From the NCBI GenBank assembly GCA_050331735.1, contig JBHJGN010000081.1, forward strand, positions 1 to 30,995: a stretch of 30,995 nucleotides of DNA, written 5' to 3'. Shown here piece by piece: positions 9,351 to 17,249 of the stretch. Position 1 is the stretch's first letter. Each line of letters starts with the position of its first letter. A program made the position numbers and the translations under genes. This DNA comes from Cyanophyceae cyanobacterium (GTDB lineage: Bacteria; Cyanobacteriota; Cyanobacteriia; Cyanobacteriales; JBHJGN01). The notes beneath the pieces were generated by a model, which made no database searches, was not told the DNA's origin, and saw only the letters and a list, made by a program, of their open reading frames with translations.

Positions 9351-10170
9351 TACTCTTATCCTCGTTCAATATTGTTTGAGCGGAAGAGTTTGAAGATTTG
9401 CTCCTACATAGAAAAGCCCAAACTGCCTCATCAATTTCAGCATTCTCGAAGATTGAAGGTTCCCATTGCAGCCACCCCAATCCGGTAGATTTGCTACCCC
9501 CCAAAGCGTGGATATGTTTGAGTCCAGCTAAAATTAGCGCTTTGGCAAAATCAGGTTTGCCATCATCTTGCTCTTCAGTAAAATTGCACAAAGGAGGCGA
9601 AAGAAAAATCTCGCCTGCAAACCTTAGTGCAGCATTGGCTGGAGAAGTTTCTAGGAAGTAGAGCTTTTTTTCTTCAGCAGTGCGGCGGCGGCGGTTGATA
9701 GTTACACCGGGACGTAGCACTTCAGGAAGGGTATTAGGGTCTTCAGTGCAAATCAGGTCGGTAAACTGAATTCTGGACGGCAGGCTGGGATTGCCAAAAA
9801 TTTGGCAGATCAAGCAGTGATACAAAGGCAGGTTATCAGAACTGCGCTCGCCAATTGCATATTCGTCGCGCTGAAAATGTTCGGTTAATCCAACTCTATG
9901 GGGACACATAGTCTGGGCTACCGGAGATTTGCAGGTTGCCCATTCTAAGGCTCTCGTCAGTTTCTCGCATTCGTGACGCAATCTTCCTTTAATCTGTGAA
10001 GCTGGAATCGCTAAGCGTCCGTCAGCCGTTTTGAGAATTGGTTTATCAGCCTGTGAGCCAGACGACCCCCCGGCTCCTACACACAGCGCCGTATCGAGCG
10101 TGGCAACTAGTTGAATTTGGTTTGCCTGACGAGACTGTACTGACTGGTTTAAGTCTCTTAACTGAATCAT
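9337..10170 (-). CDS. csm3: Csm3-like Cas7 RAMP
   Basis: IPASQIKGRLR, C..C.IFG, RPGVTINR, LGGSKSTGLG. Confidence 0.85.
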   Translation of the reverse strand: MIQLRDLNQSVQSRQANQIQLVATLDTALCVGAGGSSGSQADKPILKTADGRLAIPASQIKGRLRHECEKLTRALEWATCKSPVAQTMCPHRVGLTEHFQRDEYAIGERSSDNLPLYHCLICQIFGNPSLPSRIQFTDLICTEDPNTLPEVLRPGVTINRRRRTAEEKKLYFLETSPANAALRFAGEIFLSPPLCNFTEEQDDGKPDFAKALILAGLKHIHALGGSKSTGLGWLQWEPSIFENAEIDEAVWAFLCRSKSSNSSAQTILNEDKSNETH

Positions 10171-12599
10171 GGCTCCTCCCGTTCTCTGGTACTCTTCGCC
10201 ACCGTGTTTTGCGAGGCATCTGCGCTCGCGCTCTCTGCTACGTCAATGAAGGGATATAAATCAACCATCTCTCGCCAGATAGTTTCATAGATCGTCTTGT
10301 CTTGGTTTTCTTTGCGAATAGCAGTTGACCAGGGAGCCAAATTGCCGTTGTTAGATTCTGCTTCACACCAGGCAGCTTCAAAATTTGTTTGCAGTAACTC
10401 CTGTTCTTTTTGACCAAGCCGAACGCGAAAATAGCGGTAGTTGAGAATAGCTGAACGCTTACCGCGTTTGAGCAGGCTACGAATTTGGTAGAGCTGAGAT
10501 CTGGGGAAACCAGATTTTTTAAGAGCTTCAACAGTCGCGATTAGTCCTTCGAGTTCGTAGAGAGTGTAGGGAGCGCCATAGAGCTTAAGTTCCTGCGGTC
10601 GCTGTGGAACCCGGACGGTTAGTCCTTCATTGCGGAAGGAAGAAATATCAGAGGAAATCATAGTGACGGCTTTGAGAACAAGAAAATCTACCGTGCCGCC
10701 GAAATAATCTTCGCTCCTTAAGTCTTTTGCTCGCTTTTTGGCTGATTTGAGCAATTGCGAAACGAGTTTATCTGCGTAGTAGATTGGGGTATTAGCCGCC
10801 GTAATTAAAACTCCGCTAGAGATGCTCAAGCAACAACCCGATTGTTTTCCAGAAGCTGGCAGATAGCGGTGATGAGCTTGCTCAGGAGCAACTTCAGCAG
10901 ACTGTTTAAGAGCGTATCGTTTCTGACTACCAGTTATTTTCTCCATCAAAATCGACTCAAATTTGAAACCAATTTTAAGAGCGACTTCCAGGGCTTTGTT
11001 CGCAGGTACAACCAGCAATACGTCGTCACCACCGATAGTAATAATTTCAAAAGGATGAATCCAGACGGGAGCTTTATTGGTACGGGACGATTTAGCATCC
11101 GGTTTGTAGTAATGAGGGGCGATGCTGTGGGCAAGAGCCCAATAGACCGACTGCTCAGTAGCCTCAAAAACATCCTGGCTGAACTCTTGATAGTGAGCGG
11201 GAGTTTTAATTTGATCGCGAATGTACTGCCCCATATTGTTGCCATCAGCGTAAATATAAGCCACAAAGCCATCGCTAGCATCTCCAATCTCGGTGAGCGA
11301 TCGCGCTTCTCGCTTGTCAGGAGCTTTAATTGTCCCATTGCCATCAACGAACAATTTATGTTCTTTGTCATAGTGCTCTACGAGTCCCTCATCGCAGAGA
11401 AATTGCTCGAACTTAGACACCCAGCTACGGAAGACCTTATCGTCGGTTGTGGGATTCCAAGATTTATTGAAGTTAGCGCTTTTGTACCATTGCTGTCGTT
11501 CTGATGCTTCTCGTTTTGCGATCTGGCCCACTCGTCGCTTTCGTGCTGTTGGCTCAGAGAGTTGTGGGGTATTGGGTAAGGTATCTGCATCCACTTTTAC
11601 TACTGCCGAACGGCGATCGCTATCATCCCGCATTAGGTAAGGATGGGTTTCAAACAGCGGTGGATAACGACGGCTAGGACGAGCTGACGAATCGTGACCG
11701 CTGCGGCGTTGGTTAAACTGACTTGCCAGCTTCCCGACAAGTTCGCTAAATCCCTTCCGCTGCTTGAAAGCTGCTTCAATCTTTTCAGCATCGTCATCCT
11801 CGCTAATTCCAAAATAAGCTTGAAAGACTGGATTGTTAGCGTACTCTTGAATCGTATCTAGCCAGATAGTTCTGCTAACTGAATCTTGTAATTTCCCCAA
11901 ATAAATTTCCAATGGGCAAAACAAATCTCTAACCGCGCAGGAATTTGCTGTCAAGGTTTCGCAAGTGTAGCGTTTCTCAATAGCATCAACTAGGTGATCA
12001 ACAAATGCGGCTGGACAAAATGCTAGAATGTTGCCTCCAGTGGAGTAGATAACTAGTTCTGGAATTAGGACATTAGAATTAGAGAAGTGCGAAAAATTGC
12101 TCTTAAGCCATTCGCGAACCTGATGGCAGTAGGCTGAAGCCTCTTGACACTGAGGAAAGCGGCCTGATGTATCGCCATGGAAGAACGCAGGAAGATCGAC
12201 AAGGTTGATTGCGTCAAGCAGAGCAGATGCACCGCGAATTTCTTGCAGATCGGCAGACTCAAACACGTAGCTTTTGATTTTAGTTGCACCGCCATAAACT
12301 AAACCAATCTTCGCCTCTTGTAGGTACGGGTAGTCTGCAACCAGTTTTTCAAGCTCTGCCTTGGTTTTAGGAGGATTAAAAGACTTATTGGAAAAGCTGA
12401 GCAACGTTTTTACCTGCGTCAAGACTTCCCGCAGTTCGAAGTCATCCGGCTCTCGATTGTTTAAAATCGCCTCCCGTAAACTTTGTAGCTTTCTAAAAGC
12501 GTCATTTAGTTCGGTGTTCCTTCCCCAGAGCAGGCACCAAGTGATCGCAATAGCTGTCTGCTTCTGAATTTTTGTCAAACTAGCTGCTGAAGAAAACAT
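10167..12599 (-). CDS. cas10: Cas10 with intact Palm2 GGDD motif and no recognisable HD nuclease domain
   Basis: KIKSYVFES..EIRGAS, YSTGGN, YIYADGNNMG, IITIGGDDVL, LLKSAK; only ~95 aa precede Palm1, with no HD motif. Confidence 0.93.
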   Translation of the reverse strand: MFSSAASLTKIQKQTAIAITWCLLWGRNTELNDAFRKLQSLREAILNNREPDDFELREVLTQVKTLLSFSNKSFNPPKTKAELEKLVADYPYLQEAKIGLVYGGATKIKSYVFESADLQEIRGASALLDAINLVDLPAFFHGDTSGRFPQCQEASAYCHQVREWLKSNFSHFSNSNVLIPELVIYSTGGNILAFCPAAFVDHLVDAIEKRYTCETLTANSCAVRDLFCPLEIYLGKLQDSVSRTIWLDTIQEYANNPVFQAYFGISEDDDAEKIEAAFKQRKGFSELVGKLASQFNQRRSGHDSSARPSRRYPPLFETHPYLMRDDSDRRSAVVKVDADTLPNTPQLSEPTARKRRVGQIAKREASERQQWYKSANFNKSWNPTTDDKVFRSWVSKFEQFLCDEGLVEHYDKEHKLFVDGNGTIKAPDKREARSLTEIGDASDGFVAYIYADGNNMGQYIRDQIKTPAHYQEFSQDVFEATEQSVYWALAHSIAPHYYKPDAKSSRTNKAPVWIHPFEIITIGGDDVLLVVPANKALEVALKIGFKFESILMEKITGSQKRYALKQSAEVAPEQAHHRYLPASGKQSGCCLSISSGVLITAANTPIYYADKLVSQLLKSAKKRAKDLRSEDYFGGTVDFLVLKAVTMISSDISSFRNEGLTVRVPQRPQELKLYGAPYTLYELEGLIATVEALKKSGFPRSQLYQIRSLLKRGKRSAILNYRYFRVRLGQKEQELLQTNFEAAWCEAESNNGNLAPWSTAIRKENQDKTIYETIWREMVDLYPFIDVAESASADASQNTVAKSTREREEP

Positions 12600-13945
12600 G
12601 TAGAAATAAACAGCAAACGTTGTAATACCATTTAGCTTGTAAAGTAGTCTATTGCCTCAGCTTAAGACTTTAATATTCCTCCTTTCCGATTAGAGACAGG
12701 AAAAATCTTAATTTTTAAACTGGCTTTCTCTTAAATCAATAGGCAACTCTTATTTAACAGTACTGTTTTTGCAAAACTCAAAAAATTTATTTTTTCTTAA
12801 CAAGAAAGTCAAGTCATGACTTTTTCTACACTTTGTTAATTTCAAAGAATGCTTTTGATATCGCCTAATGTCTAAAAACCTGTTTTTAGAGTTTTTTGAG
12901 GCTAAAACTTTATTTCAAAAATGTTTTTTGTGGGCAAAAAATATAAGAATATTGGCATTGGTTCTCTTTTGACTAGTTGCAGTGACAATTTGATAGTCAA
13001 AGTTAAAGTCATGGCAACCAGTTAACCAAGTCTCAATTTTTCACTCATTCAACAAGCTCCGTTTTTCTGCAAGGCTGACAGGTTCTTAATTTTCTGTAAC
13101 AATCAGGCTTAACCAATTGTTCTAGTTGCTAAACTTAATTGCTGCTGTTTCCCTTTCCGTACATTGTTTGTCAGCCGCGCTAAAAAATTTTCGGTCATCG
13201 AATTGTCAGCGCTCAAATATAGGAAGTTTTTACTGTCGCCTGAATAAGCATAGCTTTGGCTCTCTCGTACAGAACTCGTCCCTGCTTTGCTCGCACTATC
13301 GAAGAACCGGCCAGTACTCCAGCCATAATCTTTGATTTGGCTGGCGGTGTAGGACGCGCGACCGACAGGGAGCATACCTACAACTGATGTGATACCACGT
13401 AGGCATGCTAAATATGACATGGGAATTTAAGCTAGAACCGACCGCTGAGCAAGCATTGGAGATTGAGCGCACATTGACGGTGTGTCGCAAGGTCTGGAAT
13501 TTTGCCTTGCGCGAGCGGAAGGATTGGCTTAATTCTCGCAAGTGCCTGATAAACGCCTGTTCATTACATTCTGAGTACATCTTGTCTGCTGATGAGCCAT
13601 TCCCCGGCTATCACCGGCAGGCTAAAGCGTTGACAGTTGCCAAAAGGGAAATTCCTGAATTGAAGTCTGTTAACGCGCAGATGTTACAACAGGTGCTTAG
13701 AAAGCTTGATATTGCTTGGGAAGGGTGGCGCTTAAAGCGATCGGGACTACCTAGGTTTAAGAATTAAGCCAGGATGCGTAGCTTTGTATTTCCTCAGATG
13801 CTGAAGAACTGCATTTCTGAGGAAGGGATCAAGCTTCCTCAACTTGGCTGGTTAAAGGTTCGCTGGTCTCGCGAGATTCCAGACATTTTCAAAGTCAAGC
13901 AAGCTCGCATTGTTCGCTCAGCATCTGGCTACTTTGTCATGCTTA

Positions 13946-15151
13946 TACCATTTCTGAGAAAGGTTGCACTGGTTAGAGGTGCTGCGTAGCAGCCAAAAGA
14001 TAAGACCATCCAGCTAGAGAGCGAAGCCCTGTTTCCGTTAAAGAGTTCACAACTTGAAAAACACGTTGTCGCAGAGCTGGTAAAGAGGAAAAATTTTGGT
14101 CTTTGAACAACTTTTTGAGGACTTGCCAAACGCGCTCAATCGGGTTGAGTTCGGGAGAGTGAGAAGGTTGGAAAATCGGCACAACGTTGTCTGGCCAGGT
14201 AAAGGTCGTAGCAATATGGGCACTAGCTTGGTCAGGGACTGAGCCGGAATCGATTCCGGCTCACAAGCCCTGACCTGCCTTCCGCAGGTCAAGGTGGAGT
14301 AGATTGAGGGGATCTGGAAACGCGGCTCCAAACAGCTCCACAAAACGCCCGAAGCAAGCCGCATCCAGGTGGGAAAAGCTATCGAAAAAATGCTCTCCCG
14401 TCGCCGGTTCCACCGCCCCATACACCCAAAAATTGTCTCGCTGCCACTGTACAGGCATTGTTGGTTTGACTCCTTTGAGCGTAATCCGTCGTCAAGCGCA
14501 AAGTCTTCAGTCCAAAACGGCTTTCGTCTTGGCAGAAGTAACGCACTCGACGACCGGCTCCAAAATGCTCGACCATCACCGCAATCACGTCTGGCAGTTT
14601 TTTTTAAACTGGTCTTGCACCTTTGGGTTTGCCTCACTGCTGCGCGGTCGAGACGCTTTGAGTTTGGCTTTCAGTCGGTATCGCACTGTCGCGTGTACTG
14701 TTGAATAGGCCGTCTCTAGTTGATGCTCTTCGGCTAGCCACTCTTGAATTTCTTCGTAGCTGCCAAACCCGCTTCGCCTTTTGAGCTGCTTTTTGAGGTC
14801 TTTTAGGGCTTCTCCACTGATCTTCGCCGGACGACCTGGACTAGTTTTGACTGCTAGGAGTCCTTTTAGTCCTTGTTTTTGGTACTTTTTGAACCAGCGA
14901 TAGATGGTTGATTCGGCACAGCCTAACATCTCGGCTAGTTGCCTTCTACTCTCTACTTTTCCAGTTCTCTGTAGGTACAAGGCTCTCAAGCGGTCCCGCT
15001 TTTTCGCCTGGTTTTGTGTCCTGATTAGTTCAATGAGTTCTTCTGCGCTTTCTTTGACCTCAACGTCATAAACACTTGCCATTCTTTCTCTCTTTGAGTT
15101 CCTCCTTGTCTTAGCTTACCTAACCTAGTGCTTTCTTTTCAAGAAATGGTA
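13946..15151 (-). mobile_element. IS630-family insertion sequence (defective)
   Basis: ~31-bp imperfect TIRs TACCATTTC..GGTTAG / CTAACC..GAAATGGTA, TTA on both flanks; HTH ORF 14585-15082, A8 slippery run at 14598-14605, DDE motifs QDESRFG, LHLD, SPELNPIERVW; extra frameshift near 14495 and an insertion at 14234-14290. Confidence 0.93.
14234..14290. repeat. 57-bp hairpin insertion (copy A) in the IS630 transposase
   Basis: Removal restores LHLD-QASAH; GGTC duplicated; contains perfect 24-bp palindrome TGAGCCGGAATCGATTCCGGCTCA and hairpin GACCTGC-CTTCC-GCAGGTC. Confidence 0.85.
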
Positions 15152-15223
15152 TTAGCTTAGAGGCTGATATCAGTATCCCTGACGTGCCGTATCACGGGCA
15201 TAGTATCGGGATTGATGTCGGAC

Positions 15224-15280
15224 CGCTCCTCGTGCCGGAACTCGGCTCCGGCACTCAGATGGGCGGTCGCCTTCCGCGAC
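15224..15280. repeat. 57-bp hairpin insertion (copy B) in tnpB
   Basis: Removal restores GIDVG-LKYFL; GAC duplicated; contains GTGCCGGA..TCCGGCAC and GTCGC-CTTCC-GCGAC. Confidence 0.85.
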
Positions 15281-16036
15281 TCAAATACTTTCTGTCTACT
15301 TCTATCGGCCTGCAAGTTAAGCGCCCTCGGTTTTTTGATGCTCTACACCGCAAGCTGAAATTGCTGCAACGTAGACTCAAGACCAAACAAAAGGGGAGCG
15401 CTAACCGAGTCAAGTTATTGAAGAAAATAGCCAGAGTGCATCAGCGGATTGCCGATACTCGTTCTGATTGGCATTTCAAACTGGCTCACCAGTTGTGTGA
15501 CAAAGCGGACACCATATTTGTCGAGGATCTGAATTTTCGGATTATGGCAAAAGGGTTTCTAGGCAAGCACACACTAGACGCTGGGCTGGGGCAGTTCTTA
15601 AATCAGGTTCTGCCGTGGGTGTGCTGGAAGCGAGATGTATTTTACGACAAAGTTGACCCTAGGCGTAGTTCTCAGGAATGCCCTGATTGCGGGGCTGAGG
15701 TACGCAAAGACCTTTCAGTCAGGATGCACCACTGCCTTGAGTGTGGGGCAGTTAAGCCGCGCGATATAGCAGCGGCACAAGTAATAAATAGCCGTGGGCA
15801 ACGGCAAATGGAAAATGCCTGTGGAGTCGAGGTGGCGGGGGTGTCGGCAACGGCATCTAGTCAACTGGCCCTGAAGCAGGAAATCTTTGGGGCGACCCAA
15901 AGAATCTCACTGCATACCGCTTAGCGGTTGCTGGGAGAGTATGTCAAATTTTGTAGATTTCGCTTCCGATGAAGAGTTTTTGTTCCCCTGCGGTGATTAT
16001 GTGTCTGAGCGGTGCTTGCCTGAGCAAATGCCCGTG

Positions 16037-16690
16037 TTAACCATCAGGAGTAGACCCTTCGACGATTAACGGTGGCTCAGTTAGGATTCCCACTAATACA
16101 CTCAGAAGTTCTTTAATGCCCTGAGGCTCTGTGTAAAAATTGATATCGCGCTCCAGTATTTTTGACTTGGGATTCAACCGGCCAAAGTGCCAAGTTTCCC
16201 CAGTGGTGACGGCTCCGTAGATAGAGATTTCTAGTTCTTCTCGCTGCTGAAAGGCTACCATTTCAGCGATTAACTGCTTGAAACCCTTTTCCGTGTCGGC
16301 TAGCTTGGCTTCGACGATTAAAATTTGGGAAGATTGGGAGCTAATGTAATAATCAACGGTTCCCTTAAGCTGGTCTGAAACAGATAGCCAATACTCGATA
16401 TTGATCTGTGGTTTAACAAGCTCGACTAAACGAAACATCAGTGGCGAGATCAGAACTTCGCGCCTAGCCGTTTCACTATCAAGATTGACGTAAGGAAGAA
16501 TATTATTAATCTGTTGCTCAATTTCAGCAGCTATTACTTCTATGCCGTTGTCATCAGAATACGGCAGCGTTAATCTCTTCCGATGCAGCGTGTAGCCGAA
16601 ATGCTCTGCAATTTCAGCGGCTGTTACTCGGAGTGAATAGTAGTCGCTGAAGGTTAGCGATGCTTTCTGGTCAATGACTGGTTTCGTCAC
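16037..16690 (-). CDS. Cyanobacterial PD-(D/E)xK-fold hypothetical protein (restriction-endonuclease-like)
   Basis: SETARRE.LI.P, GTVDY, IVEAK, QLIAEM, YGAVTTG..W.F motifs. Confidence 0.7.
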   Translation of the reverse strand: MTKPVIDQKASLTFSDYYSLRVTAAEIAEHFGYTLHRKRLTLPYSDDNGIEVIAAEIEQQINNILPYVNLDSETARREVLISPLMFRLVELVKPQINIEYWLSVSDQLKGTVDYYISSQSSQILIVEAKLADTEKGFKQLIAEMVAFQQREELEISIYGAVTTGETWHFGRLNPKSKILERDINFYTEPQGIKELLSVLVGILTEPPLIVEGSTPDG

Positions 16691-16968
16691 GATGTCGTGT
16701 CTGAATCTTCAACACAGCACCAATCTTAACTTAAACGCGATCGCCTTTTTAGCTCAAAATCTTCTGACATAGAAATTATTGAGATTTTTTAAATCAAAAA
16801 AAGCAGCTCGCGTGATGTTGGGCGATCGCTCTTTGGGTAGGCGATCGCTTTTTATCACGTCACCTTCAGGTGGTCACGCGCCCCAAGCGAAAAATTTGGA
16901 TATGGACCGCTGTTGACCACTTCAAGCGAGGGTTTCTGGCTTGGGTTGTCGGAACAGTGCCACTATCC

Positions 16969-17249
16969 TTGAATATTCACTTGCGGGGAAGAGATTAGCG
17001 CGGAATTTAGGCTTCCTCCGATTAGAACTGCCGCATTCTTTCACATTTCCATTCCTTTGCGGGGAATAGATTAGCGCGGGTCTCTCTACTCGAACGCATA
17101 TCTGTGAGTGCGGGCATATGTTTCCATCCCCTTGCGGGGAAGAGTTTAACGCGAGTGGAACTGCCCAAAACTCCAATCTTCAGGTAGCAACCGTCCTCAG
17201 CACGGCTCTAGGGAAGTTTCCATCCCCTTGCGGGGAAGAGTTTAACGCG
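16969..17249 (-). CRISPR. CRISPR array, 4 repeats (2 degenerate) and 3 spacers, type III-like repeat
   Basis: 34-nt core CGCGTTAAACTCTTCCCCGCAAGGGGATGGAAAC (minus strand) at 17120-17153 and 17216-17249; decayed copies at 17045-17078 and 16969-17002; spacers 42, 41, 62 nt. GAAAC 3' end and decay polarity imply the minus strand. Confidence 0.9.

Follow-up and report, generated by a model that had tools for sequence, protein, structure and literature searches.

A 54–57-nt two-hairpin DNA element inserted exactly in transposase and tnpB genes of cyanobacteria

The Nostoc SDR1–8 repeats of Elhai et al. 2008 are reportedly 21–27 nt long, non-coding, marked by compensatory changes and nested in other repeats. 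We know of no mover for them, and the movement of repeats shorter than 100 nt that have neither terminal repeats nor a gene has been an open question since their description. The accessible text of PMC5861425 records no SDR-like repeat outside Nostocaceae; there and in the accessible text of PMC4390886 SDR5 lies within HIP1 (GCGATCGC), and further SDR background is given in the available part of PMC2884548. According to the excerpts available of PMC6006769, HUH TnpA enzymes use hairpins together with a guide at the hairpin foot, and in-frame REP insertions inside tnpA-REP genes are described in these and in the available part of PMC3733652. The integron integrase, as presented in the accessible part of bioRxiv 10.1101/2022.09.11.507474, cuts in 5′-AAC-3′ on a folded strand and acts at GWT genomic sites by single cleavage.

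Two exact insertions in a broken tnpB gene

The window is a 30,995-nt contig (C81) from a 5.57-Mb cyanobacterial assembly, here called G000, with 4852 HIP1 octamers. Its tnpB gene (13405–15924) is interrupted by an IS630-type element (Table 1). Besides the small insertions described below, tnpB carries a stop at 13765 and the IS630 insertion itself, and the IS630-type element has extra bases at about 14492–14498 relative to its siblings. The flanks of this element (window 13943–15154) appear to be 3-bp T-N-A repeats, TTA here and TGA, TCA and TCA at other right ends; the usual IS630 flank repeat is TA. Read depth suggests several further IS630-type copies, unassembled at contig ends. The broken tnpB sits between a Cas10/Cmr2 gene (10167–12599) and a CRISPR-repeat-like sequence (17120–17150) that scores below the Rfam gathering threshold.

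An earlier note on this DNA had singled out two 57-bp segments, copies A and B, and both are present at that place and length. The flanking repeat proposed for A, GGTC, is indeed a direct repeat (14230–14234 and 14287–14291) but is 5 nt long (GGTCA); its reverse complement, TGACC, is present inside the copy. The 3-nt repeat GAC given for B holds. Six registers are equivalent for the boundaries of A, from 14230–14286 to 14235–14291, and those of B can be placed from 15221–15277 to 15224–15280. As first noticed, A adds a TGA stop directly after the LLHLD of the IS630 transposase, which now reads LLHLD-LRKAGQGL-stop, and B lies in frame, two codons past the Asp of TnpB GIDVG. Either strand of both copies folds with z-scores of −3.6 to −4.5. 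A and B share only 25 of 57 positions in an ungapped comparison, so that it is the fold, the tail and the other copies that tie them together.

Table 1. Coordinates of the two copies and of their host genes in the window
Feature	Position	Strand	Basis
Host tnpB, 5′ part (HTH_OrfB_IS605; stop 13765–13767, frame changes afterwards)	13405..13945	+	Pfam
IS630-type element, host of A (HTH and DDE_3 domains; inverted ends TACCATTTCT; TTA-repeat flanks)	13946..15151	-	Pfam, sibling comparison
57-nt copy A, G-type, with its A|C core on the minus strand	14231..14287	+	Sequence, model, target alignment
Inner hairpin of copy A (TGAGCCGGAA / TTCCGGCTCA)	14240..14263	+	Folding, model
Short tail hairpin of copy A, C-T-GC-CTTCC-GC-A-G	14275..14287	+	
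Host tnpB, 3′ part, with B (OrfB_IS605, Cas12f1-like TNB domains)	15152..15924	+	Pfam
57-nt copy B, C-type, with its A|C core on the plus strand; in frame within tnpB	15223..15279	+	
Inner hairpin of copy B	15232..15254	+	Folding, model
Short tail hairpin of copy B, T-C-GC-CTTCC-GC-G-A	15267..15279	+	

Uninterrupted homologues are available for both sites. Of 17 non-self IS630 rows, 13 are in register and lack A (the other four are off-register and uninformative); in these rows nothing separates the D/E from the peptide downstream, and the closest row has LLHLD|QASAH. Copy B is missing from all 21 non-self tnpB rows. In sequencing run X1, which is possibly the source sample and so not independent, contigs of sibling IS630 copies skip A, and one contig of run X2 has a tnpB lacking B. 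An Rfam search of 12600–17200 of the window at E up to 5 gave no match over A or B. Copies A and B are confirmed to be genuine: each is a small non-coding DNA element with two hairpins, inserted exactly.

Anatomy and census of the family

The element, mostly 54–57 nt long, is built from a long bulged hairpin and a short Y-GC-MTTCC-GC-R hairpin. Read 5′ to 3′, a 6–8-bp outer stem, a one-base bulge, a three-base bulge and an 11-bp inner hairpin are followed directly by the short hairpin. Across 69 sites, 55 copies are 54 nt, seven 53 nt and five 57 nt long; 62 of the 69 are a multiple of three in length, and 18 of the 55 54-mers are stop-free in all six frames. In 49 distinct 54-mers, 97.8% of cells are paired and 19 of 21 pairs vary on both sides, figures that may be too high because the sequences are related and because DNA palindromes can undergo template-switch correction, and that fall short of proving selection on the fold. 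G-U pairs occupy six of 1029 cells in the same set, a near-absence that fits a DNA hairpin better than RNA.

Copies occur nested in one another and in other small repeats, and a 66-nt copy (C16) has an inverted tail hairpin inserted in its loop at GAA|C. Loop flips and exchange of hairpin modules at one site are common, and the two insertion types defined below, C-type and G-type, carry identical inner-hairpin variants. At some homologous sites different variants are found (L235/L345/L351, L231; L333/L359/L395), a mixture that suggests insertion hot spots or inner-hairpin exchange between copies.

Several related repeats were also seen. A third tail type, C-GTT-G, occurs on A-like bodies (L224, L268, L277, L279, L283, downstream of L071, and C30:4231 in G000), and copies with it have 4–5-nt repeats (GTCA, CTCAA) at both ends. 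G000 contains a second, 45-nt family with the same two-hairpin logic, CTCAA-long hairpin-TTGAG-CAAG-CTCAA (C12:67429, C83:11918, C98:25212, C80:11877, C27, C59 and C6), in which the C27 copy shows covarying CTAAA/TTTAG. A 24-nt form made of a short stem and the tail hairpin (C11:41577–41602) lies in the same IS1 as a full copy and may be what a deletion left behind or a minimal element of SDR size. At C16:54926–54977, C65:585 and 2576, C44:80746 and C62:288 there are hairpin repeats that have a CCGGAAC..GTTCCGG core and no tail hairpin.

The family was searched with a model (R1) built on 12 seeds from BLAST and patterns, with which 150 of 2874 first-look candidates in G000 were scored. As the earlier note had anticipated, further copies exist: at least seven firm full-length copies score at least 37.8 bits each, of which A, B and C38 are seeds and two copies on C62, C11 and C37 are non-seeds. 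Three degenerate copies (C9, C16, C45) score 28–32 bits, inside the chance range of pattern-preselected foreign loci (up to 31.4 bits). With a loose pattern, 119 loci were retrieved from 49 of 64 parts of a genome contig collection; four score at least 56 bits, three of which are seeds or seed-identical, and we take the remainder (up to 31.4 bits) as the chance ceiling.

Beyond G000, matches were found in 11 of 13 genomes of one other genus, with up to 37 per genome, and a 19-nt pattern was present in 18 of the 401 genomes searched in the order, spread over 10 genera (reversed control, 0). Metagenomes yielded 72 loci in 37 flank clusters with a pattern that fixes the commonest body and leaves the ends free. 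A phylum-wide model search, insensitive at 38 candidates scored per genome, was positive in four of 150 genomes. Plasmids gave one match for a 54-mer and none for copy B; viral contigs gave none with one pattern and, with a second, two chance matches in a portal gene. Named carriers are Crocosphaera subtropica ATCC 51142 (plasmid pC) and one Pleurocapsales isolate. The 69 sites analysed are 77 flank clusters minus three degenerate, two short-flanked and three merged duplicates, one of the merges (L333 with L245) looking spurious. Copies in G000, in other genomes and in metagenomes, together with exact empty sites, bear out the proposal of a structure-defined, dispersed and precisely inserted mini-element family.

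Insertion sites and candidate routes of movement

Empty alleles were found for 21 of the 69 sites (none for L226), and in the family register the gap is 0 at 20 of these 21, several of the homologues being only 72–85% identical. Insertion is therefore precise, without loss or clear duplication of target DNA. At 64 of 69 sites the element and the right flank begin with the same base; four of the others have T opposite a C start and one has a changed start. A reading of the flanking repeat as a target duplication sits poorly with C38 and L231, whose empty alleles carry T where the element starts with C (one of one and three of four homologues, 82–99% identical, the fourth L231 homologue having C), which favours no duplication over a 1-bp duplication.

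C-type copies (n=59) share the target consensus T-N-R-A|C-Y-T, where the bar marks the insertion point: T at −4 in 36, a purine at −2 in 52, A at −1 in 47, C at +1 in 55 (T in the other four) and a pyrimidine at +2 in 51. The remaining 10 of 69, the G-type copies, which include A, start with G and precede GT; read on the opposite strand, their targets are R-A|C (A at −1 in eight, C in 10, purine in eight; p 0.001 versus background), with a pyrimidine at +2 of the A|C strand in 5 of 10, a poor right-half fit for which 2-nt pairing on the sense strand could be an alternative. When the two ends of an element are joined, the junction reads A|C in 50 of 59 C-type copies; all 10 G-type copies show A|C there on the opposite strand. 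Six C-type copies have a G|C junction instead, and the target of each has A at −1. The junction restores A|C-Y within a paired core, which is GC-ACY-GC or, in B's subfamily, GC-GACC-GC. In G-type copies such as A this core lies on the opposite strand and the element is inverted on the target motif; the core of B (GCGA|CCGC) is within one base of that of the G-type copies L202 and L055 in inverted orientation. The apparent duplication around the copies is the R-A|C-Y motif common to target and element junction.

The quasi-palindromic targets pointed out at A and B are present in the sequence, yet left–right complementarity over all sites does not exceed that of shuffled pairings at any of nine centres; across sites there is a consensus trend (purines left, pyrimidines right) that is not site-specific. 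The 'C at −4' rule of topoisomerase I was considered and rejected (T at −4 in 36 of 59; G at the mirrored position in 7 of 59).

It had also been proposed that the stems adapt to the flanking DNA, and a rewriting of stems by the flanks at or after insertion, at least in 57-nt G-type copies, can be weighed directly. Total flank match over the family is 149 against a permuted mean of 152, sites with at least four matches number four against 5.9 expected, and the second base of the element equals the flank in 21 of 57 cases, with no effect of type (Fisher p 0.38). Many unrelated sites carry nearly the same stems. G-type copies considered alone show a slight excess (29 versus 24.7, a total reached in 231 of 5000 permutations) that comes from A and L221, each of which matches its flanks over 5 nt, and the core occurs in both orientations within several body lineages. 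However, A is the discovery case, and its body (GTCAGG...CCTGAC) is found again in genomes G129 and G211, where the flanks differ and the tail is CGTTG (L224, L279, L283). We consider such rewriting highly doubtful; stems are inherited and do not, as a rule, adapt to each site, with no family-wide sign of it.

Taking these ends and inherited stems together, the reading that we prefer, at about even confidence, is that the element moves out of DNA and back into it as a single-stranded, folded circle, with a borrowed enzyme making and resealing the cut at A|C. Excision would be limited to the strand that has A|C at each end, the circle would reopen at the same A|C bond, a single-strand exchange would join the excised element to a target A|C, and replication would fix the inserted strand. 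Such a model would explain the need for the first base to match the target, with T tolerated as a wobble, the lack of circularly permuted copies and the occurrence of both orientations. Reopening at the same bond would keep the linear order, and circularly permuted copies (tail hairpin first) did not exceed the control in five genomes. A flipped core would reverse the orientation, and both orientations occur.

The chemistry envisaged would resemble that of the integron integrase on attC/attG and of HUH transposases on hairpin ends. An HUH enzyme of the IS200/IS605 TnpA type is a tentative candidate for the mover, an enzyme of another class is an equally tentative one, and a tyrosine recombinase seems slightly less likely. 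Y1_Tnp genes are present in four of five carrier genomes (19 matches in the five draft genomes searched), and the proteins translated look class 1, apart from that of a broken gene in G000 resembling subclass 1.2. An HUH gene of this subclass was set aside as mover, being broken in G000 and absent among the other translated matches, and no RAYT or class-2 TnpA flanked by copies was found in the five draft genomes. The strictest target position is +1, and IS200/605 TnpA selects sequence to the left of the cut. The 13 genomes searched in the high-copy genus showed no integron integrase above the cut-off and gave only fragments, in G211, G282 and G038, and none was found among the two full-length PF00589 proteins scanned in G000 (four matches). 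The fragments are L431 (G282), L432 (G211) and L435 (G038); G282 and G211 are among the element-richest genomes. In the element, 6 bp separate the cut from the first bulge, a spacing that departs from the known geometry of attC.

Instead of a dedicated cutter, a polymerase or reverse transcriptase might leave a stalled or broken end at AC microhomology for a folded donor copy (DNA or RNA), copy it and return. The AC-hairpin-GT-hairpin-AC layout favours template switching, as do the loop flips and hairpin-module exchange; reverse transcriptases occur in four of five carrier genomes, and an RNA intermediate has reportedly been proposed for Nostoc SDRs. The extended motif (T at −4, purine at −2, and A at −1 in all six targets of G-ending elements) points instead to protein recognition, and both the exact boundaries at the empty sites and the scarcity of G-U pairs speak against templating, which we judge rather unlikely.

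The expected enrichment in other mobile elements is clear: 40 of the 69 sites lie inside IS genes, 24 in tnpB/IS200-605 (20 called by a TnpB profile, one of them just outside the gene, three by Pfam and one by RRXRR) and 16 in DDE or IS1 genes (12 by Pfam, four by eye). The model contains no flank sequence, so detection is not biased by flanks. Other sites include yoeB, a telomere resolvase, heptamer repeats and unannotated DNA. All seven firm G000 copies are in IS genes, three of them in tnpB, which makes up 0.27% of that genome by a profile from 16 ORFs that may undercount it; two of the three weak copies are also in IS genes, bringing copies in tnpB to five of 10. Orientation relative to tnpB transcription is even (11 versus 12, hand tally), and both orientations occur in host genes. 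DDE-gene sites lie near tnpB in one of 15 cases, compared with two of 22 control IS loci, so local TnpA action near tnpB is not supported. Weak purging of copies from dispensable DNA, together with hitch-hiking on IS, likely contributes to the concentration in tnpB and transposase genes.

Proximity to catalytic motifs, also noted earlier, is suggestive only. Eight of about 37 nuclease-gene sites (A, B, L235, L231, L249, L236, L369 and the partial L472) lie within three codons of what we take to be a catalytic residue. Without A and B the count is 6 of 35 (p 0.017 at 6% expected), and it is 5 of 34 (p 0.05) when L235 and L231 are collapsed to one recurrent position. In TnpB, weighting by motif left the expectation no higher. 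Detection by profile is biased towards conserved cores, which makes catalytic proximity a lead.

The IS-gene bias in G000, this proximity and the unraised TnpB expectation would suit a host-beneficial device, kept or aimed to disarm TnpB and transposases by landing at their catalytic residues. Against it stand the weaker signal on collapsing the recurrent position, the detection bias and the presumed catalytic assignments; moreover, frame length is kept in most copies, 18 of 55 54-mers are stop-free in all six frames, and both hosts in the window are already broken. We regard such a device as clearly improbable, and the disabling of other mobile elements proposed earlier is conjectural, given the other lesions of both hosts and the 62 frame-keeping copies. 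A broader version appears quite unlikely: that the 54–57-nt DNA dumbbell with its flippable core is a self-spreading transposon parasite, which a hitherto undescribed single-strand recombinase steers into TnpB and transposase genes, often by catalytic residues. If it were true, a mobile element of minimal size would be at work in cyanobacteria, disarming the other mobile elements.

Returning to the single-stranded circle, the family offers a handle on movement through exact ends, a strand-defined A|C-Y cut motif and a predicted circle junction. The natural pair of C-type and G-type copies should flip insertion orientation, and Crocosphaera subtropica ATCC 51142 is a culturable carrier. The excess in tnpB and transposase genes bears on TnpB gene decay, and if an enzyme is found, a 54-nt frame-keeping donor with a short target would make a very small insertion substrate.

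Comparison with known systems

Nostoc SDRs reportedly share with the element a tiny size, the lack of coding capacity, a cyanobacterial host and nesting in repeats, and the compensatory conservation of structure is seen here too, in the 49 distinct 54-mers. They differ in their described length, reportedly 21–27 nt versus 54–57 nt, and the element is further distinguished by its R-A|C-Y target and strong IS-gene bias. SDR-like repeats had been found only in Nostocaceae according to the accessible text of PMC5861425, whereas the element is found in Crocosphaera and Pleurocapsales records. Unlike SDR5, it does not lie within HIP1 (GCGATCGC), as judged from flanks and target logo.

REP/REPIN sequences and IS200/IS605 ends resemble the element in size range, hairpins and absence of target duplication (available parts of PMC6006769 and PMC3733652). 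However, the GTAG/CGTC tag at the REP/REPIN stem foot is absent from the element (alignment by eye), which is mostly intragenic and has its strictest target base 3′ of the cut. Non-autonomous IS200/IS605 elements have a fixed 4–5-nt left target and a free right flank, whereas here the left side is degenerate and +1 is strictest. MITEs have target duplications of at least 2 bp, which the gap of 0 at 20 of 21 empty sites contradicts, and the absence of TIRs noted earlier stands, since the 5′ end pairs with an internal segment and not, as in a MITE, with the 3′ end.

In form the element resembles attC cassettes at attG, with a bulged, folded single strand of about 57 nt, a putative crossover at the C of an A-C step, a short genomic consensus and no strand bias (accessible part of bioRxiv 10.1101/2022.09.11.507474). 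In contrast to attC, the element has no cargo gene and no RYYYAAC/GTTRRRY boxes, its junction cores are GCA|CYGC, and its consensus is R-A|C, not A-W|C. Rickettsia palindromic elements, in the available part of PMC10969869, are likewise palindromic and in frame in genes, but are about 150 bp long and lie in metabolic genes. No description of the family was found in the literature searched, in which three element sequence strings were unmatched and whose scope was papers outside subscription (Elhai 2008 being among those behind it). The element is a real addition to the SDR-like tiny mobile repeats, and what appears new in it is the combination of defined ends and motif, an invertible core and an IS-gene bias.
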